From positions 480,001 to 512,000 of the forward strand of contig NC_015931.1 in assembly GCF_000223395.1 (NCBI RefSeq): a DNA stretch of 32,000 nt, read 5' to 3'. Of this stretch, positions 8,102 through 22,611 are shown piece after piece (position 1 is the stretch's first letter; the number at the start of each line of letters is the position of its first letter). Under the pieces are notes generated by a model. That model was not told where the DNA came from. It did not search any database and saw nothing but the letters and a program-made list of their open reading frames with translations. Source of the DNA: Pyrolobus fumarii 1A (GTDB lineage: Archaea; Thermoproteota; Thermoprotei_A; Sulfolobales; Pyrodictiaceae). Made by a program: the position numbers and the translations under genes.

Positions 8102-8197
8102 AACATAATTCATTCTTGGTTGTTCGCCGGTATCACCTCGCGCACGGCATCCTGCGTCACCAGCCTCGCTAGGGAACAACCAAGAATGAGTTGAAAG
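8102..8197. repeat. Orphan inverted pair of CRISPR-repeat-like sequences flanking a 47-48-nt segment
   Basis: 8102-8125, aacatAATTCATTCTTGGTTGTTC, has array orientation and a degenerate 5' end. 8173-8197, GGAACAACCAAGAATGAGTTGAAAG, is the reverse complement of the array repeat with 2 mismatches. Positions 8107-8125 can pair with 8174-8192 over 19 bp including one G-U. Confidence 0.85.
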
Positions 8198-10161: not shown

Positions 10162-10365
10162 TCACCGCCTCTTCGAGGCTGCAAGGAGCCCCAGGATGAG
10201 GGCGGCGAGCGTCAGGAGACCCGCGGCGGCGACAGCCAGCTTGAGCCGGAGGTCTAGCTGGGCGCTCCTGGGCATCTGGTTCCAGTCGATGTACATCTGT
10301 AGGAGAGTCGCGGCGGCGACGAGCGCAGAGCTGAGCGCAGCGAGTATGCCCGTCGAGCGTCTCAT
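10162..10365 (-). CDS. Small 2-TM membrane protein
   Basis: 67 aa with two hydrophobic helices (ILAALSSALVAAATLL; LAVAAAGLLTLAALILGLLAA). Its stop is 4 nt from the doc start. Confidence 0.45.
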   Translation of the reverse strand: MRRSTGILAALSSALVAAATLLQMYIDWNQMPRSAQLDLRLKLAVAAAGLLTLAALILGLLAASKRR

Positions 10366-12538: not shown

Positions 12539-12783
12539 TCTCCAATTCATTCTTGGTTGTTTCGTGGCGCTCATCGTCTCGTAGGCCTTGACTATGGTCG
12601 GCCTCGACTTCTTTCAATTCATTCTTGGTTGTTTCATATGGGGTGAGGTGTTGATATGGGGCGAAGTTGAGAATTATGCCAGAATAATCTTTCAATTCAT
12701 TCTTGGTTGTTTCTCTGCTCTCCCTCTTCTCCACCATATTCTCGATGTGCTCCTCTAGCTTTCAATTCATTCTTGGTTGTTTC
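12539..12783 (-). CRISPR. CRISPR array 1: 4 repeats and 3 spacers (47, 53, 45 nt). crRNA sense is on the minus strand.
   Basis: Repeats at 12539-12563 (degenerate: TCTCC instead of CTTTC), 12611-12635, 12689-12713 and 12759-12783. Plus-strand consensus is CTTTCAATTCATTCTTGGTTGTTTC. The minus strand reads GAAACAACCAAGAATGAATTGAAAG, ending in the ATTGAAAG tag. Confidence 0.95.
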
Positions 12784-12802
12784 GTCCTACAGTATCAGTA
12801 GG

Positions 12803-13216
12803 GTGTTTGCTGCCGCGAGGGGCATAGCCAAGGGGCTTCTCGCTGTACGGGAGGAGCGCGTCTACCGCGGGCGTAGGGTCGTGGTAACCGGCTACGACCT
12901 CGTAGAGTTGTTGACCCTCATTGCAACGGTTGCCGACCCCGAGGCTCGGAAGAGAGTAGCCGAGGCCATAGCCGACGGGAACGCCGAGGCCGCCAGGCGC
13001 GTAGAGGAGAGGATGGTTGAGTACGTGGCGTCCGTCGTGGAGTCGCCGGACCCCCTGGCCGCGCACGTGGCTCAACGCGTAAACGAGGAGTGGTACGCCA
13101 GGTTCGCGGAGTTCATCCAGGAGCCGGACTACATGCGTTTCTTGCGCCGGCGTTTTTCCCACTCGCGGCGCAGCTTCTCCTCGGCTATCCGCCTAGCCCG
13201 CTCCAGCTCACTTTGA
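12803..13216 (+). CDS. Hypothetical helical protein (start GTG 12803 or later). The track ORF start at 12707 lies inside the array and is an artefact.
   Basis: The middle part is protein-like (DPEARKRVAEAIADGNAEAARRVEERMVEYV...EEWYARFAEFIQEPDY). The 3' end overlaps the convergent membrane-protein gene by 88 nt. Confidence 0.35.
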   Translation: MFAAARGIAKGLLAVREERVYRGRRVVVTGYDLVELLTLIATVADPEARKRVAEAIADGNAEAARRVEERMVEYVASVVESPDPLAAHVAQRVNEEWYARFAEFIQEPDYMRFLRRRFSHSRRSFSSAIRLARSSSL

Positions 13217-13893
13217 GTCAACCCTAATGAGCGTGCAAGCTCCACCGCGAGCTCTAGCCCGAGGCGCTTGCCAATCGGCACTAGGACTTCATCCGCAATC
13301 AGAGCAGCATAGTCGCCGTCGTACTGGGCGAGCTTCCACCAGAGCCACTCGATGCTATCCGTCACCCAGAGAAGCGGCGCGAGCACCGCAGACACCACTG
13401 TAACGAGGAACCAGTCTAGCGGTAGGCGGCCCCCCACGAGCGCCAGTAGCAAGGGGGCCGCGGCTGCCACGGCGGCCTCCGCTGCAGAGGCCCCGGCCCA
13501 CCCCTCGTCGCTAGGCCTGCCCAGGAGCGCTATCGGTATACCGAGGTAGAGCAGCCCGCCCACCGGCGCGGTTAGCAATGCAGCCGCGGCATGATGTGCC
13601 CCCAGCGCCCCGGCCACCAGGCCGAGCGGCACGGCAGCCAAGCCAGCCCAGAAGGCGTCGCCCAGCACATTCGCCCTAGTGACGAACATGGATAGTGGAG
13701 CCAACCCCAGGGTGTCGTCGGCGAACCACCATAACAGTAGCAGGTAGAGCGCGACCAGCACCGTACCCGCGGGTAGCTCGAACCCGCCCAGCACCAGGTG
13801 GACGGGCCAGAGCGCCAGCGTCTCGGCCAGCCAACCCAACAGTTGTAAAGCCTGGGCTTCTACCATCGTAAACCCCGGGTTACACCCGACCAT
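13129..13893 (-). CDS. Polytopic membrane protein with a charged C-terminal helix
   Basis: Multiple hydrophobic helices, then ...ELERARRIAEEKLRREWEKRRRKKRM. No family recognised. Confidence 0.5.
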   Translation of the reverse strand: MVGCNPGFTMVEAQALQLLGWLAETLALWPVHLVLGGFELPAGTVLVALYLLLLWWFADDTLGLAPLSMFVTRANVLGDAFWAGLAAVPLGLVAGALGAHHAAAALLTAPVGGLLYLGIPIALLGRPSDEGWAGASAAEAAVAAAAPLLLALVGGRLPLDWFLVTVVSAVLAPLLWVTDSIEWLWWKLAQYDGDYAALIADEVLVPIGKRLGLELAVELARSLGLTQSELERARRIAEEKLRREWEKRRRKKRM

Positions 13894-13930
13894 CCACGAC
13901 CACTTATACCCCGGGTTAGTCGCGAGTACA

Positions 13931-14623
13931 TCAAGATGGTGTGCGGGCTAGTACCCAACCGTCAGATGCTCTTCGCCCCGGTCCGCCAACGGGGGTGTGC
14001 ATGTGTGCGCCGACTGAGCTGTTACCTAACATGCTGCGGAAGAGCTTGTAGGCCTCATTACTCAGCTCCTCGAACACTTGAGCCGCGACGCCTTGGCGTG
14101 CGGCTATACCGGCAAGGACGAGGATGACAGCCGCTTTGACATATTCGCCCTTGCCAATCTCGCACCGGAGGTACCTATCGATGATGGTTAACGCGCTGGC
14201 AACCGACGCGAAGAATGCTGCAGCCTCCTCGGTGAACCTACCCTCCCCCAGCTCCTTGGCGAAGAGGCGGCACCAGATGCAATCCCACAACTCTTCTACC
14301 TCGGCTTTCACGGCCGCCGGTGTGGAGCCATCCAGGAACCTGGGAGCGTCTCGAGCGAGCTCGGCTAGCCTCTCCTCCAAGAGCGCCAGGGCTTCGTGGA
14401 CACGCCCCGCCCTAACTAAGGGCGAGACCTCCTCCTCAACCCTGCTCAACCACTCCTCAATCACACTGCGGGGTAGGATGCGCGACTCCCGCCTAAGCGA
14501 GTAGACAGCCACCGCGGCGAGTACAACATCCTCATCCACACAAGCGGGCACGGGAACCACCATCACAAAACTGCATGAACGATTGTTATCCCTTCTTGGC
14601 TCCTCGGGGTGCCGAGGCGTCAA
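13931..14623 (-). CDS. Hypothetical helical protein (start possibly the ATG at 14563)
   Basis: ORF with balanced composition. No motif recognised. Confidence 0.4.
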   Translation of the reverse strand: MTPRHPEEPRRDNNRSCSFVMVVPVPACVDEDVVLAAVAVYSLRRESRILPRSVIEEWLSRVEEEVSPLVRAGRVHEALALLEERLAELARDAPRFLDGSTPAAVKAEVEELWDCIWCRLFAKELGEGRFTEEAAAFFASVASALTIIDRYLRCEIGKGEYVKAAVILVLAGIAARQGVAAQVFEELSNEAYKLFRSMLGNSSVGAHMHTPVGGPGRRASDGWVLARTPS

Positions 14624-14657
14624 TGTGCATACGGTGCTGTTCCCGACCGACCCGGGG

Positions 14658-14664
14658 TATAAGA
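14658..14664 (+). promoter_or_regulatory. TATA-like box for the 14700 gene
   Basis: GGGGTATAAGAGG, with TATAAGA 36-42 nt upstream of the GTG start. GGTG SD-like element at 14692-14695. Confidence 0.35.
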
Positions 14665-14699
14665 GGTAGGAGGCTACGGGCGGTCGTTCACGGTGGGTC

Positions 14700-16424
14700 G
14701 TGGTGGGTAGGCTGGTGCTCTACGCTGCCGCGGCGGCTGTGGGTGTGTACATCGGCCTCCTCGTAGTCGCGCTCATCGCGTCCGTGCACGAGCAGCCCCA
14801 GAGGCCGGAGGTGCACGTCTACATCTACAACCGTGAGGCCTGGGAGGCGGCCCGGCGGCAACACGAGGTCACCCCGGTGGAGCTGGCGGAGGCCGTCCGT
14901 AACGGTACTCTGCTTGTCTCTCCGCCCGCCGGCCCCGGGCTGGCGTCCAGAGGCGAGCCCAGGGTACCCTACCCGCTCTGGGCCAGGATGAAGCCCGTGG
15001 ACGTGAGCGACCCGCGGGTACGCGGGTACCTGGAGTGGGTGCTGGGGCTCATCCGGGAGGGGGCCAGGAACCCCAAGAGCTACGGGTTCGACGACGCTGT
15101 GGTGCTCCCGAGGAGGGCTAGCCTGGAGCCACCCGCACCCATAGCGAACGCGACGGCCAGGATAGGCACCGTGCTCCTGCCCTACGGGTTCGCCGTCACC
15201 ACCGTCATCTACCCGTGCGGCCCCACGGGCAGCCCCGGCCTATGCGCGGTAGTCCACATGTACGCGTGGAACAAGACGGGCCTGGCGAGGATGGTGGTGA
15301 GGGCGATGGGGGTGGAGCAGTTGTTGGCGCCCCCACCCCGGCGCATGGGGAAGCTCGAATGGTTTGAGAAGCGGATACTCTGGGTCGTGGAGTGGCCGGT
15401 CGACCCGAGACACTCCGCCGTCCTCGCTTACAACGGGTCTAGGGTGGCGAGGGTCACGAGGGTCTACGTGGTGCTAGAGGAGCCGCTCATAGAGATGCTG
15501 GGGATACCCAGCCCAACCGGGTTCCTCTCCAGGGCGGCGAAGTGGTTCTGGGCGCTCTCCGGGGTAGCCGGGGGGATAGCCACCTGGCTCAGCGGCGCCG
15601 GCTACCATGAGGTGGCGGACACGCTTGTCCGCCGCGGCCTCCTGGCGTACAAACTGCACTACACGTATAGGGTGGCGTGGACCACCGGGGAGCCCTACCG
15701 GCTCATCCAGCGGCAGGGCGGCGTCTGCGAGGACTACGCCCTGGCGACACTCATGCTAATATCTGGGCTGGGGAACGAGCCCGCGGTGCTAGAAGTGGGT
15801 ATAGTCAATAAAGAGGGGCATTTCGCCGCGGGCCTACTAACGACGCTGGTGGACTGCGGGCTGTCCACAGACAAGTTCGTGGACCTCCCGGCCCCACTGC
15901 CGGTGTGCACCAGGGGCTACGTGAACTACGTGGACACCGCGAGCATGCCCACATCCCACTACAAGAGGCCGGTGTTCGTCCCGCCCTTCCTCATCCCCGA
16001 CGCCCTGGACTACTGGTTCCTCTGGAGGGGGTTCGTGGACAAGCTCCCATGGTGGCTGGTGAGCCCCTACGCGGCCAACACGACCCTGGGCCGTGAGGGT
16101 ACACGCTTCGTGATGGAGGTGGCGGCGAACTACTCCTGCACCCCCAGCATAGCCTGGCGTAGTGTCTACCCGCTGGCTGTGGGGGACGTGCTGGAGCAGG
16201 ACGCGGGGCTGGCAAGGAGCTTCGCCAGGTACGTGAACGCCACGCCCACCGGCGAGAGGCTCACCCCGCCCCCGCCAACCGTCTACAGGGCCGGCGACCC
16301 GACCCCACCCGACGTGAGACTCGACTACTCCCTGCCGGGCGACTTCCGAGTACCGGACCACGGCATCTTCTTGACAGAATGGGAGGCGCACCAGTGCCCA
16401 CCCGAGTTTAGCCGCGACACCTAG
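14700..16424 (+). CDS. N-terminally membrane-anchored large protein with a possible transglutaminase-like Cys-protease core
   Basis: N-terminal TM (LVLYAAAAAVGVYIGLLVVALIA). GGVCEDYALATLMLISGLGNEP...EGHFAAGLL...STDKFVD resembles the Cys-His-Asp spacing of transglutaminase-like folds. Confidence 0.5.
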   Translation: MVGRLVLYAAAAAVGVYIGLLVVALIASVHEQPQRPEVHVYIYNREAWEAARRQHEVTPVELAEAVRNGTLLVSPPAGPGLASRGEPRVPYPLWARMKPVDVSDPRVRGYLEWVLGLIREGARNPKSYGFDDAVVLPRRASLEPPAPIANATARIGTVLLPYGFAVTTVIYPCGPTGSPGLCAVVHMYAWNKTGLARMVVRAMGVEQLLAPPPRRMGKLEWFEKRILWVVEWPVDPRHSAVLAYNGSRVARVTRVYVVLEEPLIEMLGIPSPTGFLSRAAKWFWALSGVAGGIATWLSGAGYHEVADTLVRRGLLAYKLHYTYRVAWTTGEPYRLIQRQGGVCEDYALATLMLISGLGNEPAVLEVGIVNKEGHFAAGLLTTLVDCGLSTDKFVDLPAPLPVCTRGYVNYVDTASMPTSHYKRPVFVPPFLIPDALDYWFLWRGFVDKLPWWLVSPYAANTTLGREGTRFVMEVAANYSCTPSIAWRSVYPLAVGDVLEQDAGLARSFARYVNATPTGERLTPPPPTVYRAGDPTPPDVRLDYSLPGDFRVPDHGIFLTEWEAHQCPPEFSRDT

Positions 16425-16543
16425 ACCCCGGCGCACCCACCCCCACCCCTCCTCCACACCCGCGCTCACCCGGCACCCAGCCCCACACCAGCCATCCTCG
16501 CACCCTCCACACCCTACGCGCCCCGCACCCCCGAGGACGCCGC

Positions 16544-16667
16544 ATGCTGCAAACCATTGTGCACTCGGGGGCGCTCCCCGCCACCCGGGGGCCTGGAGGG
16601 CGGCCACACACAGCCCAGGGAGGGGCCCAGGAGCCCACAGCGGAGCAGCCATGTTGCAAACCATGGT
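16544..16667 (+). repeat. Two copies of the ATGTTGCAAACCATGG motif (left cluster)
   Basis: 16544-16560 ATGCTGCAAACCATTGT and 16651-16667 ATGTTGCAAACCATGGT, in GC-rich non-coding DNA after the stop of the 14700-16424 gene. Confidence 0.8.
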
Positions 16668-16846
16668 ACACACATGGGGCACCTCCAGGGCCCCTCTCCC
16701 CCGCCGCCGCCCGGCGCGCACGTAGACGCGTGGACGACCCCAGACGCCGCCAGAGTAGACCCTACCATCTTCCAGCTGGAGATGATGGTGTACCAGTGCC
16801 CACCGGGGGAGGAGTCCTAGCGCCCCGCGTGCGGCTGCAGGGTGGC

Positions 16847-17293
16847 CTACGGGGAGGTGGTTGCGCTTATGGCGTACTCGGGGTACGCGCTGTACACGTA
16901 GCGGAGGAGCTCGAAGGGCTTATCGGCCCACAGGCGGACCAGCCTCTCCATCTGCTCGAGGAAGTGGGGCTCCTCCCTCCTCAGCCTCTCCACTATCTCC
17001 TCGTAGAGCCTCCTCCCCTCCCCGGTCAGCTCGAAGACGTAGACGGTGTATGCTCCTCCATGAGAGGGCTCGGTGTGCACCCTCACCAGGCCCCGCCTCC
17101 TCGCCTCGTCGACGCCCCTCGCCAGCTCCGCGGAGACCGGGCCGTAACGGGTGGGTGTGTACCCCAGGCAGCAGCCGCCCGCCTCAACGACGCCCAGGAA
17201 CCCGAGCTTCTGGAGAACCGTGCCGCCACGCAGCCGCCCGCCGGCGAGCCCCACGAGCAGCACAACCCACTCGACGGGCGATAGCCTGGCCAT
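16847..17293 (-). CDS. Putative winged-helix DNA-binding protein
   Basis: 148 aa. LSPVEWVVLLVGLAGG...GTVLQKLGFL...YGPVSAELARGVDEARRRGLV...YVFELTGEG resembles a wHTH followed by a helical C-terminal domain. It is the only convincing ORF in 16.4-18.1 kb. Confidence 0.5.
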   Translation of the reverse strand: MARLSPVEWVVLLVGLAGGRLRGGTVLQKLGFLGVVEAGGCCLGYTPTRYGPVSAELARGVDEARRRGLVRVHTEPSHGGAYTVYVFELTGEGRRLYEEIVERLRREEPHFLEQMERLVRLWADKPFELLRYVYSAYPEYAISATTSP

Positions 17294-17704
17294 GAGTAGA
17301 CACCCCGAAAACCGGGCGTGGGCTGGGGGCGGCGCCCCTCTACCCCCGGAGCCCGATTAGCGCCAGGGTAAACGCGGCTAGGGCGATGCCAGCCAGGGTG
17401 AGGGTCTGTATGGCGAACTGCCCCGCGTAGACTGCTATGCGGTCAGACCCATCCACGCTCCCACCCTCCAGGGGACGGGGCCGGAGGCGCCGGTATACAC
17501 TCTTCCCCAGGGCCCTCACCGCGCGTCCTCGGGCCTCGCCGCCGAGTACTTCTCGACGAGCTCGCGTCCTCAAGGTTGGCTCCTCGTGCGGCGGTTGCCG
17601 GCGTAGACACCCGGTAGACCATCTGCCCAACTGCTCCGAACTCGCTCCCCGTGGGGGTGGCGTTGAAGGCCCCGGCTGGGGCCGCTCCCAACACCCACAC
17701 CCGC

Positions 17705-18040
17705 ATGTTGCAAACCACGGCACCCCTCCGTACCCAGGCCCCAGGTGGGCGCTGGGCAGCAACCGCGGGCAAGGGCATGTTGCAAACACCGGGGCCCCGA
17801 GACCCGCACCCCCCACGGGCCGGGGTCGCGTCAGCTGGGGCCGGAGGCCACCGGCCACGCCGCGAACCGTGGGGCGCTACCCTTCCCAGCCACACGCCGG
17901 GGGCGGAAACGGGCCAGAGCCGGGGCCTACGGGGAGACGGTGACGTTGCAAACCATGGTGCCCCTGGCTCCGTTCGCACGGGGCTTGGGGGGTGCACGAG
18001 CCCGGCTCCGGGCACCAGACCCCATGTTGCAAATCATCGT
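17705..18040 (+). repeat. Quasi-periodic cluster of the ATGTTGCAAACCATGG motif (right cluster)
   Basis: Copies start at 17705 (ATGTTGCAAACCACGG), 17777 (ATGTTGCAAACACC), ~17857 (degenerate, ACGCCGCGAACCGTGG), 17943 (ACGTTGCAAACCATGGTG) and 18024 (ATGTTGCAAATCATCGT). All are in the same orientation. Spacings are 72, 80, 86 and 81 nt. A related GTGTTGCTTGTACACGG forms the start of the 18084 ORF. Confidence 0.8.
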
Positions 18041-18083
18041 CTACTCTCTCACGCTCTCCGGGGCACGGTTATAGCCGCGTGGG

Positions 18084-18737
18084 GTGTTGCTTGTACACGG
18101 CATGAGGAGGGGCGTGTATACCGCGGCGTTCCTGCTGCCCTACCTCCGGGGGCGTCCCCGGAGGGGCGCCTCCCCCAGGCGGATAGTCATCTGGCAGTCT
18201 AGCAGCGAGTTCATCGAGGCGCTTAGGGGGGCGCTGGAGAGGGACGGGTTCGACCCGGGGAGGGTGATGGTCGTCAACGTGTACGCGACGAGGGTTAAGG
18301 GGAGGGTGTACCGTCGACTGAGGGTCGTGCTCCTGGAGCCGGTGGCGAGGAGGGTCTACCGCCTCCTCTACCCGAGGGTCAAGCCCGTCATCTACAGGTT
18401 CCAGGGTGCGAGGATGATGCTGAGGACCGCGCTGAGGGTGACGAGGGTGAGGGGCGCGAGGCTCGAGGGGCTCCGGAGGAGGCTGCTGCGCTCGGGGCTA
18501 GCAGCCACCGACATCGACCCGGTGTGCCGGGTGCCCGGCTGCCTGGCGGCGAGGCTAGCCAGGGGGAGGAACCCCTTCCTAGCGGCCTACCACAGCTGTA
18601 TGAGGCGCTACGAGTGGCTCCCCTTCGAGGAGAGGGAGGGCTACTGCATCTACACGGCCTATGAGGAGGTGGGCGGCGACCCGCCGCACTGGGCGAGGAT
18701 GATGTACGAGAGGGTCAGGGCGAGGCTATTCGGGTGA
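18084..18737 (+). CDS. Arg-rich hypothetical protein
   Basis: 217-aa ORF, very basic (many RR/RxR). Contains CRVPGC...HSC, a possible metal-binding motif. GTGA stop/start overlap with the next gene. Confidence 0.45.
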   Translation: MLLVHGMRRGVYTAAFLLPYLRGRPRRGASPRRIVIWQSSSEFIEALRGALERDGFDPGRVMVVNVYATRVKGRVYRRLRVVLLEPVARRVYRLLYPRVKPVIYRFQGARMMLRTALRVTRVRGARLEGLRRRLLRSGLAATDIDPVCRVPGCLAARLARGRNPFLAAYHSCMRRYEWLPFEEREGYCIYTAYEEVGGDPPHWARMMYERVRARLFG

Positions 18738-19000
18738 CGGGCGTGGCGCCCTCCGACGCGGGGCTGGAGGCGAGGAGGCTCGAGGGCGAGGCTAGGGCGG
18801 CGCGCGAGAAGATACGCGCGTTCGAGGAGAGGTACGGGATGTCCTCGCGGGAGTTCCTGGGGCGGTTCCTCCGCGGCGAGCTGGGCGACGAGCAGGACTT
18901 CATCGAGTGGTGGGGTGAACTCGTCTTCCTCGAGGAGGCGGAGAGGGGGCTGGAGGAGCTGAGGAGGGCTGAGCGGGGCGGGGAAAAAGAGCGGGGCTAG
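18734..19000 (+). CDS. Small antitoxin-like helical protein
   Basis: EKIRAFEERYGMSSREFLGRFLRGELGDEQDFIEWW resembles a pattern (FE-x-KYGMSSEEF...GEL-x-D-x-DF-x-W) that I recall from small archaeal TA-associated proteins. The family was not verified. Confidence 0.45.
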   Translation: MTGVAPSDAGLEARRLEGEARAAREKIRAFEERYGMSSREFLGRFLRGELGDEQDFIEWWGELVFLEEAERGLEELRRAERGGEKERG

Positions 19001-20994
19001 CCCTGCGGCTGGACACCCACCAGGTAGAGGATGTAGTCGTGGCTGGCGGGCGCAACCGCGTCTATCGGGACGCCCTCCGGCACGTAGTTGAACCAGGCTT
19101 CGGCGGCCTGGCCGACATCCCTCGTGAACACCTCGGCTCCCGTGGTGGCGTCGGCCAGCGTCGCCGTGACACTGGCGACCGGCTTGATGTTATGGATGTG
19201 TAGGAAGACCGGCGCACCGTAGACTCTGAAGAGGGCCTCGTCCCCAGGCATGACGATGAGGTGTGTCAGCGCGACTAGGCTGCCGCAGCCTTCGAGCCAG
19301 CCGCCGCACGCCCAGCCTGGGTGCACGCGCAGGTAGATGGTCGCCGGGCCCTGGACGAGCAGCGCGAGCCTATGCACGTTGCCGGACGTGAACGTGTAGA
19401 CGCTGCTAGTGTTAACCATACCCTCCGCCCTAGCCGCGATGATTGGGTTGGCGTAGCCGGTGTCGACCTCGACGAACGGCGGCTTCGCCCAGCTCGTGAT
19501 GGGCGTGTAGAACTCGGCGACTATGATGTGCCTCCCGTCCGGGACCCTCACCGCAAGCTCCGCCCAACCATCCGACTCGGACGTGGCGGCGACGAGCAGC
19601 GACGGCTCTACGGCTGAGTACGTGTCCCACAGCAGCCTCTCGAGCCACGCGTTCACAGCTATCCTGGATAGGCTGTAGGGGTTGCCACCGTTCCCGTAGA
19701 GCGGTAGGGCTACAACCGCGTTGCCGGACGCCGAGATGGTAAGCCCGTAGCCGGCAGCGGCCCTAGAGTACCTCGCGTCTATCTGCGACGCTTGTGGCTC
19801 CGGCGTTGCCCTAACCGCCCCGCCCTCCAGCCACACGATGCGGTCGATGACGCCGGGGACGTGTATGTACGGGTCCAGCAGCACGTCCGACTTCAACGTA
19901 TCGATGGTGGTGATAGCAGCGTGCCAGTAGAGCTCCGGCGGCTCGAAGCGCCCGGTGGAGGCGTCGAGGTGGCCGAAGGGCAGCGGGAGCCTGAACGTCG
20001 CGACGGGCAGGCTGCCCGTACGATACACGAGTATCTTCGAGAGGACGGCCGCCGCGTCGCTGAACTCCGGTGTATCGTCGCACGGGTTGAGGATGTAGGC
20101 GCGTATGCGGAGCCTATACTCGCCGCCGGTGGAGTCCAGGGCTAGCACCGGCGCGAGCTGCACCACGGTGTCACTAGTGTAGTTGAGGCAGATGACGGTG
20201 GTGCAGTCTGTGCCCCACGTCTCGCCGGGGCGGTCTATCACCGCCCTGGCGGCGACGCTCCCGTCGGGCGAGACGACCTCGACGACAATCCTCACGGTCA
20301 GCTTGTTGTCACCATCTTTGTCATCGTAGGTGAAGACGGGGACTACGACGACCCTGCCGCTTGGCAGGCTCAGCGGGACGATGACCTCCAGGAGCGGCTC
20401 CTCGGAGGCCAGTGTACAGACGTTGCCCTGCCAGAGCAGCTTGAACGTGTCGTCGCACGCGGCGTAGAGGACGACGCCCGAGTGCGCCGAGCTCCCGCCG
20501 GATAAGGTACTCTCGAGGTTCAGCCCGCGGGCGAGGGCAGCGTATCTACCGTCGCTCATCGGGCCCTTTACGCCCGGCTTCGGGTATGCGTCACAGTGCG
20601 GCAGGTAACTCCTGGCCACCACAACGCCGTCCGCGATAAGCTCCATCGTGGTGTTCCACTCGCCGGGGATACGAGCCGTCTTGTCGACACCCAGCCCGAC
20701 GTACGGCGCGTAGAGCCACGAGAAGTCGATGACGTAGCTGGATGGTTGGCCTCCCTGGTCAATATCCGGCCAACCCACCTGGTATGGTACCTCCGGGAGG
20801 TCTATGTCGAGGTGCACCACGCTGCCCGGCCTCGGGTCTGTGATAGCCCGGAAGCTCCTCTCCGCCCACCGGTACGCGAGGAACGCCTGGGCGGTGTCGT
20901 TCTCCGACGTGTGCGTCAGCGGCGTCACGACGTGGGCGCGGTACCGTACTGCGCCGGTGACGGTGCAGGGCCCCACGCCGGGTATCCTCGCCAC
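18997..20994 (-). CDS. Large (665 aa) beta-rich hypothetical protein with no TM or signal peptide. It starts 60 nt downstream of the array 2 trailer, on the same strand.
   Basis: Long ORF with balanced, strand-rich composition and a GTG start at 20994. No catalytic motif recognised. Confidence 0.6.
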   Translation of the reverse strand: MARIPGVGPCTVTGAVRYRAHVVTPLTHTSENDTAQAFLAYRWAERSFRAITDPRPGSVVHLDIDLPEVPYQVGWPDIDQGGQPSSYVIDFSWLYAPYVGLGVDKTARIPGEWNTTMELIADGVVVARSYLPHCDAYPKPGVKGPMSDGRYAALARGLNLESTLSGGSSAHSGVVLYAACDDTFKLLWQGNVCTLASEEPLLEVIVPLSLPSGRVVVVPVFTYDDKDGDNKLTVRIVVEVVSPDGSVAARAVIDRPGETWGTDCTTVICLNYTSDTVVQLAPVLALDSTGGEYRLRIRAYILNPCDDTPEFSDAAAVLSKILVYRTGSLPVATFRLPLPFGHLDASTGRFEPPELYWHAAITTIDTLKSDVLLDPYIHVPGVIDRIVWLEGGAVRATPEPQASQIDARYSRAAAGYGLTISASGNAVVALPLYGNGGNPYSLSRIAVNAWLERLLWDTYSAVEPSLLVAATSESDGWAELAVRVPDGRHIIVAEFYTPITSWAKPPFVEVDTGYANPIIAARAEGMVNTSSVYTFTSGNVHRLALLVQGPATIYLRVHPGWACGGWLEGCGSLVALTHLIVMPGDEALFRVYGAPVFLHIHNIKPVASVTATLADATTGAEVFTRDVGQAAEAWFNYVPEGVPIDAVAPASHDYILYLVGVQPQG

Positions 20995-21054
20995 GAGGTG
21001 GATGACGTACGGTGGCTTGTCGCTCCTACAGACGACCGGTAGGGTCGTGTCGTT

Positions 21055-22240
21055 CTTTCAATTCATTCTTGGTTGTTTCTACTATCCCCCATGCTGCAAG
21101 AAGCGCAGGATGTGTAACCTTTCAATTCATTCTTGGTTGTTTCATGGGAGTAGGAGCCGCTTCACGACCATCACCATCCTCGCTTTCAATTCATTCTTGG
21201 TTGTTTCGCACGCTACCTCACCCGGGTCACGCGCGCCACTATCACCCAGCAGGTGCTTTCAATTCATTCTTGGTTGTTTCGCGAGGCCTACGATTATGTA
21301 GTCTTTGAGTGTGAAGCTCTTGCTTTCAATTCATTCTTGGTTGTTTCGAAGTTTATTGTCATTGGTCGACATAAGTTTACACCGATTCAGCTTTCAATTC
21401 ATTCTTGGTTGTTTCACAAGTACGGGAAGGGCATCAGCGGAATTGCCAAGTACCTTCTTTCAATTCATTCTTGGTTGTTTCACGATGTCGATGTATATCA
21501 TAAATGCTTTGGCGAGTGTAACCTTTCAATTCATTCTTGGTTGTTTCATCCTTCCCGACCCTGGGCGAGGCCTTCGGCCTCCCGCCGCTACTTTCAATTC
21601 ATTCTTGGTTGTTTCTGGAGGAGGACGTGGGGAGGGAGTACGACAGGGAGTACAACCCCTTTCAATTCATTCTTGGTTGTTTCATGGGTGTTGGAACACT
21701 CGAAGAAGCTTGACGAGCTTAAACTTTCAATTCATTCTTGGTTGTTTCGTCTAGGGTATGGCGCGGCAATACAACACCAGGAGGTCTCTTTCAATTCATT
21801 CTTGGTTGTTTCTAATCTCGACTGGTCTGGGCACATTAACCCCCGATGGTATCTTTCAATTCATTCTTGGTTGTTTCCGTGTCTGGTATTGTAAGGATTG
21901 CGTACGAGAAGGGTATACTACGATTCGCAACTTTCAATTCATTCTTGGTTGTTTCACAATTACAACCCCAAGAAGCGTACAATAAAGCGGGGGGATAGCT
22001 TTCAATTCATTCTTGGTTGTTTCAGGAGGAGGTCGCGACGGTAGAGTCGCCACCGTACAACAACGTTACCTTTCAATTCATTCTTGGTTGTTTCCTGGGT
22101 CACCGCCTTCGGCGCAGACCCAGCGATTCTAGACGAGATCATCAACGCTTTCAATTCATTCTTGGTTGTTTCATGCGCTAGATCTAGCATTGCAATAGTA
22201 TATGCAATGAGCATCCTTTCAATTCATTCTTGGTTGTTTC
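21055..22240 (-). CRISPR. CRISPR array 2: 18 identical 25-nt repeats and 17 spacers of 39-53 nt. crRNA sense is on the minus strand, with the leader on the right.
   Basis: Repeat CTTTCAATTCATTCTTGGTTGTTTC starts at 21055, 21119, 21183, 21256, 21323, 21391, 21457, 21523, 21591, 21659, 21724, 21788, 21853, 21931, 21999, 22070, 22148 and 22216. The reverse complement ends in ATTGAAAG, the 8-nt crRNA 5' tag known from Sulfolobus and Pyrococcus. Confidence 0.97.
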
Positions 22241-22500
22241 TGCATTCTTGCCGTGTGGTTATAGGCTCTTCCCCATATTTATCTCTGCCTGTCTTGCCTT
22301 TGTTGGCGTGGCTGGGGAGGGGTAATGGGCTTCAACGGTGCCCTTGCGGGACGGTCCAGGGGTAGTACCGGGTTTATAAACGGGGCAAGGGTTAAATGCG
22401 GGTTCCCTGCGGTTAGGATGGTCTCGCTACCGCCGATAGTCCCGTGGGTGACGGTCCACAGGTAGTACCGGGGATTAAAAGGATTACGCTGAGGGGTAGA
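22241..22500 (-). promoter_or_regulatory. CRISPR leader with a tandem ~31-40-nt direct repeat carrying TATA-like boxes
   Basis: AT-richer non-coding DNA abutting repeat 18. 22350-22380 (GACGGTCCAGGGGTAGTACCGGGTTTATAAA) and 22450-22480 (GACGGTCCACAGGTAGTACCGGGGATTAAAA) match at 25/31 positions and lie exactly 100 nt apart. Confidence 0.6.
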
Positions 22501-22611
22501 AAAGGTTTTCGCGGGATGTGGTTTTGTAGTTGGTGTTGTGTTGGGTTGTTGTGTTGGTGTTGTATCGTGTTCTTATGGTAGTCTGGTGGTTGTTGTGTTG
22601 GGTGTCTTGTT

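Follow-up and report, generated by a model that had tools for sequence, protein, structure and literature searches.

The closest described counterpart of the locus analysed here is SiL-E1, a pseudo-spacer of about 2 kb in the CRISPR_2 array of Sulfolobus islandicus LAL14/1, which has perfect repeats on either side (Jaubert et al. 2013, PMC3718332). Known pING1-like plasmids match SiL-E1 collinearly as far as the repeats, and the authors left the mechanism open. A further route has been put forward for viruses carrying solitary repeats (Faure et al. 2019, summarised in PMC8616872). Integration through such a repeat predicts an element that lies in the array between host-type repeats and interrupts array transcription; in the part of the summary consulted it stands as a proposal and not as a documented case. 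Related sequences at the two ends of integrated DNA are also produced by tyrosine integrases, whose attL and attR sites are direct repeats at the two ends of the integrated element, and by IS200/IS605 elements, whose left and right ends bear subterminal palindromes that are related, point in the same direction and are not accompanied by terminal inverted repeats.

We analysed a stretch of 32,000 nt of the Pyrolobus fumarii 1A genome (the window; G000:C1:480001-512000 of the 1,843,267-bp contig), in which a single spacer slot of a CRISPR array is taken up by an 8.27-kb insert. The insert has about four times the length of SiL-E1, the sole published case that a limited text search of the literature brought up. 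In both loci several ORFs are carried by foreign DNA of kilobase size, the repeats to its left and right are identical, ordinary repeat-spacer units follow beyond them, att sites are lacking, and the host is a crenarchaeon whose repeats are of a similar type (SiL-E1 as described in the available part of PMC3718332). They differ in size (8.27 kb versus about 2 kb), in that the P. fumarii insert has no known donor, and in that it bears look-alike words at its ends, of which we found no mention for SiL-E1 in the same part of that report. The features are collected in Table 1.

Table 1. Features of the interrupted array, of the insert and of its junctions (window coordinates unless G000:C1 is given)
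Feature	Position	Strand	Description
Insert	12784-21054		8,271 bp in one spacer slot, about 8 genes
Array 1	12539-12783	-	Four repeats, 3 spacers, degenerate terminal repeat at 12539, without leader
Array 2	21055-22240	-	18 perfect repeats, 17 spacers; leader-proximal piece
Leader of the split array	22241-22611	-	150 nt past the last repeat were read; end coordinate 22611 from the preliminary description
Left flanking repeat	12759-12783		0 mismatches, flush with left end of insert
Right flanking repeat	21055-21079		0 mismatches, flush with right end of insert
Left motif copy	12785-12804	+	TCCTACAG-TATCA-GTAGGGT, 1 nt past the left flanking repeat; last bases overlap the possible GTG start at 12803
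Right motif copy	21024-21045	+	TCCTACAG-ACGACCG-GTAGGGT, then CGTGTCGTT, then the repeat; 9 nt from the repeat
Weaker inner copy	12861-12883	+	TCTAC-CGCGGGC-GTAGGGTCGTG, inside the left-end coding sequence
Extra palindrome CTAC-N6-GTAG	12892-12905	+	Encodes the conserved peptide GYDLVE
Overlapping palindrome	21032-21048	+	ACGACC-GGTAG-GGTCGT, predicted fold at right junction
Left-end gene	12803-13216	+	Reads inward; 137 aa if started at GTG 12803, 111 aa if started at 12881
Right-end gene	18997-20994	-	665 aa, reads inward, no homologue found
Insert genes, first four			137-aa ORF; 254-aa membrane protein; 230-aa protein; 574-aa protein
Insert gene between iteron-like repeats			148-aa winged-helix (wH) protein
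Insert genes, rest			217-aa basic protein; 88-aa TumA-like protein; 665-aa protein
Genome arrays, first four	G000:C1 388807-391251, 425698-430417, 437565-438823, 461092-466549		
Genome arrays, remaining three	G000:C1 473827-475977, 492539-492783, 501055-502240		

The window holds two same-strand blocks of the 25-nt repeat CTTTCAATTCATTCTTGGTTGTTTC, one of four and one of 18 repeats. Twenty-one copies match without mismatch, and 23 do so at three mismatches or fewer, including the degenerate copy at 12539 and an orphan at 8173-8197. Seven arrays are found genome-wide, and a conserved leader (TGCATTCTTGCCGTGTGG..., TGCATTCTTGCC...) lies directly past the last repeat in six of them, that is, in all except the four-repeat block. 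Since this block is leaderless and carries a degenerate repeat at its far end, both blocks are parts of one array, the four-repeat part being distal. It is a single array, split by 8,271 bp, with its leader at 22241 and transcription running along the minus strand from there, and the two repeats that flank the insert are identical and in the same orientation. All 252 spacers of the genome are 37-58 nt long. The sole cas1 gene (genome position 470935-471780) lies outside the insert, about 21 kb upstream of it. The seven arrays, with some 260 repeats, span 114 kb, and the published table of P. fumarii genome statistics gives 'CRISPR repeats 0' (PMC3156397). Concerning their far ends, a degenerate terminal repeat is present in arrays A, C and F and absent in arrays B, E and G, and the far ends of other arrays may have been lost in events similar to the one described here.

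The insert looks foreign, judging from its GC content (65-71%, as compared to 54.9% for the genome) and from its almost complete lack of outside relatives. Its likely genes were judged by third-position GC. The 574-aa protein has no outside homologue in 5.8 billion proteins or 29 family-level genomes, and the 665-aa protein has none in 5.8 billion proteins or roughly 200 order-level genomes. No donor of the insert was found in viral, plasmid, genome and metagenome collections. Of the insert genes, a genome of the same genus (G138) contains only the wH and the TumA-like gene, both in other contexts. The wH copy in G138 is 76% identical and lies between a transporter gene and ilvD. The 88-aa protein of the insert (18734-19000) matches the antitoxin TumA below threshold (NCBIfam, E = 2.8e-7). 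In G138 the homologue of this protein adjoins one that by eye looks TumE/DUF6516-like, and the partner in the insert is the unrelated 217-aa basic protein. Promoters of the insert share a GGGGTATAAG(A/T)GG-type TATA element (13899-13911, 14654-14666, 18065-18075).

Two stretches of the insert have close relatives elsewhere in the chromosome. Within the wH gene 423 bp (window 16870-17292) are 100% identical to genome positions 328022-328444 with unrelated flanks, which points to recent gene conversion or transfer between high-GC islands. The second wH copy is part of a further high-GC island (G000:C1:317998-329400), where some translations resemble, by eye, a secretion/conjugation-type ATPase and a tRNA-guanine-transglycosylase-like gene pair. 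A pseudogene piece of the 574-aa gene is found at G000:C1:460463-460891, with 57% amino acid identity, four stop codons and 87% nucleotide identity over the best 262 bp; 200 bp separate it from the first repeat of array B, a perfect copy at the far end of that array. The 423-bp identity together with the pseudogene piece elsewhere indicates that the insert is a mosaic.

The genes at both ends of the insert have frames that reach the flanking repeats. The frame of the left-end gene is open back into the repeat, and that of the 665-aa gene stays open for 21 codons upstream of its start. Regarding the left-end gene, database protein P0003 begins at the GTG within the weaker inner motif copy. A single outside homologue of the left-end protein was found, the distant P0004, which has about 30 extra N-terminal residues, and the likeness between the two extends almost up to the junction (fixed-register p = 0.04). 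The left-end gene may therefore be cut at its 5' end by the junction, in which case the insert would be a fragment and not a whole element. In neither joint configuration does the right end of the insert encode the N-terminal part of P0004, and the contig of P0004 was not found in genome, viral, metagenome, phage and plasmid collections.

Each end of the insert carries the word TCCTACAG followed, after a short centre, by GTAGGGT. A preliminary description of the window had noticed these two copies, and both their sequences (TCCTACAG-N5 and -N7-GTAGGGT) and their positions are exact. The composite TCCTACAG-N3-10-GTAGGGT occurs at the two junctions only in the whole 1,843,267-bp genome. The 8-mer TCCTACAG itself, which the preliminary description had not seen elsewhere in the window, has a third occurrence there on the minus strand (10297-10304), and it is not rare (3 seen, 1.2 expected; 15 of 100 shuffles reach at least 3). 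The codon phase of TCCTACAG, derived by hand from the sequence and the frames, differs between the left and right copies, so the likeness exists at the level of DNA and is not a protein repeat. Two further sites lie near the left end. The weaker inner copy has the 11-mer GTAGGGTCGTG in common with the right copy (21039-21049) and encodes the conserved peptide GRRVV; the inner copy and the extra palindrome both code for GRRVVVTGYDLVE, a peptide conserved in the family of the left-end protein. The word GGGTCGTG is about 15-fold enriched in the insert, partly at gene starts. Due to this enrichment and to the coding conservation, the two extra sites count for less than is apparent. Genome-wide, CTAC-N5-11-GTAGGGT is found at 20 sites, three of them less than 100 nt from the junctions, and no flanks are shared among the other sites. 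The iteron word CATGTTGCAAACCATGGT was considered as a relative of the junction motif and turned out to be unrelated. No Rfam family or tRNA is present at the junctions, and the window contains no tRNA gene.

The strength of the likeness depends on how it is measured. Smith-Waterman alignment of 12784-12830 with 20995-21054 (47 x 60 nt, repeats left out) recovers the motif, as the preliminary description had proposed to test, and reaches p = 0.015 under two scoring schemes; lenient gap costs give p = 0.13-0.22. When 200 x 200 nt are aligned, the motif is not the top match, and the top match has p of about 0.09. We also asked how often a pair of 50-nt windows shares two exact blocks in collinear order with a combined length of 15 nt or more. 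In this two-block test the junctions stand out with p of about 0.001 against random pairs from the genome and 0.003 against random pairs from the insert. In addition, 5-nt complementary arms within the blocks would arise by chance in roughly 1% of cases (a factor of about 100), an estimate for a property noticed post hoc. Overall, the statistical support for the junction likeness is modest.

The likeness may thus be a product of chance, the insert ends being arbitrary break points of a captured fragment. The non-significant alignments with lenient gaps and with 200-nt windows speak for this, as do the post hoc discovery of the likeness, a hairpin that is neither stable nor conserved, and a 3' block that overlaps the enriched GGGTCGTG. 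The two-block test and the complementary arms, on the other hand, would be unusual for coincidence, and so would a composite that is unique in 1.84 Mb and whose two copies lie 1-9 nt from the junctions. We regard chance as a rather unlikely explanation.

The arms CCTAC and GTAGG had been read as a 5-bp stem. In DNA at 37 °C the left copy is predicted to fold at -2.7 kcal/mol (z = -2.0). The right copy favours another stem (ACGACC/GGTCGT), and the weaker inner copy has no fold. The 5-bp stem is weak on the left and is not the preferred fold on the right. P. fumarii grows above 100 °C, where a lone 5-bp stem cannot stand. These predictions bear on the idea that the insert is an IS200/IS605-like or other HUH single-strand transposon with subterminal hairpins and a transposase encoded elsewhere. 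Look-alike palindromes in direct orientation with differing loops, together with the lack of inverted terminal repeats (there is no inverted similarity between the insert ends), are what such an element would show. However, no Y1 HUH transposase (PF01797) is encoded in the insert or anywhere in the genome, the stems are weak, and the right end is followed by a repeat instead of the expected spacer. Such transposons are not known to make 25-bp target duplications, and a 25-bp repeat stands on each side of the insert. This reading is largely refuted, and we give it hardly any credence.

The copies had further been interpreted as an attL/attR-like duplication of a repeat-plus-spacer unit, arising either from a site-specific recombinase that uses the hairpin or from an element with its own repeat-spacer unit. 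What holds of this is that the copies lie at both junctions of one insertion with perfect repeats on either side; the duplicated unit itself is not supported, as a degenerate repeat is found nowhere in the insert. The 17 nt before 21024 had been described as weakly resembling the 3' half of the repeat, but the resemblance is at chance level, 28% of random 40-mers from the insert matching the repeat equally well. A duplicated host spacer or att core is no better founded. The spacer implied by the duplication, G-TCCTACAG-(5 to 7 nt)-GTAGGGT-CGTGTCGTT, has 30-32 nt as compared to the 37-58 nt observed, and the centres of the copies (TATCA versus ACGACCG, 5 versus 7 nt) are unequal in both sequence and length, which does not suit a common crossover region. 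In known attL/attR pairs, by contrast, the core is the same in both sites, overlap region included, and the element comes with an integrase gene. No integrase or transposase family was detected in the insert with Pfam, PHROGs or NCBIfam, profiles that a highly divergent recombinase could escape. The only tyrosine recombinase of the genome (PF00589) lies at 1,784,175, 1.28 Mb away. The 217-aa basic protein was modelled with AlphaFold as a possible hidden recombinase, which gave a pLDDT of 48 and no usable model, and it has no sequence match in the PDB. Origin of the copies from a duplicated spacer or att site is thus unlikely.

The same evidence weighs on the related proposal that both junctions are hybrid products of a crossover, either between a spacer and its protospacer or in a site-specific attB x attP exchange, as the preliminary description had suggested. 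The geometry of a single crossover fits, with direct repeats at both ends that each lead into a CRISPR repeat. Recombination between spacer and target is known (Varble 2019, as cited in the part of PMC8616872 consulted), and it is among the scenarios proposed for SiL-E1 in the available part of PMC3718332. The ordinary spacer implied by such a crossover would start GTCCTACAG... and end ...GTAGGGTCGTGTCGTT. Yet it would have the same 30-32 nt, with 0 of 252 spacers being shorter than 37 nt, its centre would have to account for two copies that differ by 2 nt, no integrase was found, and none of the 252 genome spacers matches the insert. We consider crossover products improbable.

Some further candidates were examined along these lines. 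A casposon fails for want of terminal inverted repeats and of a Cas1 (casposase) of its own in the insert. The right 44 nt (21011-21054) were also considered as a spacer derived from a cas3-like or csx1-like gene. They are identical at 24 of 28 positions to the helicase motif VI region of the host cas3 (genome 405004-405031) and at 25 of 29 to a CARF-HEPN csx1-like gene (1787071-1787099). Two matches of this strength together fall in the tail of about 2-3% for random 44-mers, and the translation of 21011-21054 lacks the helicase arginine, so both matches are treated as chance. The spacers flanking the insert do not recur in other arrays of the genome, and the left-flanking one has no match in metagenome contigs.

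Since a perfect repeat stands on both sides, the insert may have entered through the repeat, and this includes entry of an element with a repeat of its own. Such an element would have carried a host-type repeat (x-repeat-y) and would have integrated as a circle by homologous recombination between repeats, the motif copies merely flanking the repeat of the element. Recombination of this kind would leave perfect repeats on both sides, would do without a recombinase and could use any internal repeat, which suits a site 18 repeats away from the leader. Published work contains a proposal of this kind for solitary repeats borne by viruses (PMC8616872, in the part consulted), although no free element with the P. 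fumarii repeat was found and no viral contig in IMG/VR carries it. The 423 bp shared with 328022-328444 are a sign that the insert and the chromosome have exchanged DNA by homology. An ORF from GTG 21012 shares its frame with the left-end gene if the repeat is kept between them, but the same frame argument is valid for a direct joint without a repeat. Neither a degenerate second repeat inside the insert nor a reason for two look-alike words around the repeat comes with this route. Cas1-type capture and recombination through an element-borne repeat would both yield the observed structure; the latter we judge unlikely, while taking it seriously.

The explanation that we prefer, tentatively and while still holding it to be doubtful, is that the motif copies come from the inserted DNA and serve as markers of its ends, and that the insert is an oversized 'pseudo-spacer' joined to the repeat on both sides. 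Closing the insert into a circle would bring the two copies to a distance of 10 nt (32 nt from start to start) between divergent genes. A random break would hit this 10-nt gap about once in 800 cases, which probably links the break point to the motif. The copies would then be neighbouring sequence words lying on either side of, or specifying, the site at which opening or trimming of the donor DNA took place. Both free ends would have been joined to the two sides of one CRISPR repeat, by which the repeat came to stand on both sides, and the likeliest route would be aberrant spacer integration by the host Cas1-Cas2. We infer both that the motif defines the insert ends and which enzyme did the joining.

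The closeness of the copies to the repeats (1 nt and 9 nt), the uniqueness of the composite in the genome, the junction-window tests (p = 0.001-0.015) and the presence of one cas1 gene about 21 kb upstream are in favour of end markers. This is countered by the modest statistics of a similarity found post hoc and by the lack of any relative of the insert with the same ends. If the left-end gene is cut (p = 0.04), the left copy would be placed inside coding sequence. The weaker inner copy is explained by coding constraint, and GGGTCGTG is common in the insert. Unlike other insert genes, those at the ends have no GGGGTATAAG-type promoter within the 60 + 19 nt at the insert ends. The normal target of Cas1-Cas2 is the leader-proximal repeat. 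The insert lies 18 repeats from the leader, so that end markers joined by Cas1-Cas2 require either 17 later acquisitions or an ectopic event.

A more specific form of Cas1-Cas2 uptake, which we think quite improbable, is that a whole replicon of 8.3 kb was taken as one 'spacer' by way of 3' tails annealed through microhomology. After resection, the 3' tails would pair through the TCCTACAG and GTAGGGT blocks. The paired region, about 20-22 bp long and ending in 3' flaps of 9 nt and 1 nt, would mimic a prespacer, and one integrase complex could attach both ends, one on each side of the same repeat. If this were true, terminal microhomology would be a rule for the uptake of kilobase-sized DNA by CRISPR arrays. 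The probability that remains beyond all these explanations falls to more complex rearrangements.

Taken together, the junction feature is real, modestly supported and so far unique, and its interpretation as an att site or as a duplicated repeat-plus-spacer unit is mostly not supported. A sequence feature at the ends on both sides is directly testable. Even if the ends should be meaningless, the CRISPR array of an organism living above 100 °C tolerates an 8-kb interruption that carries genes.
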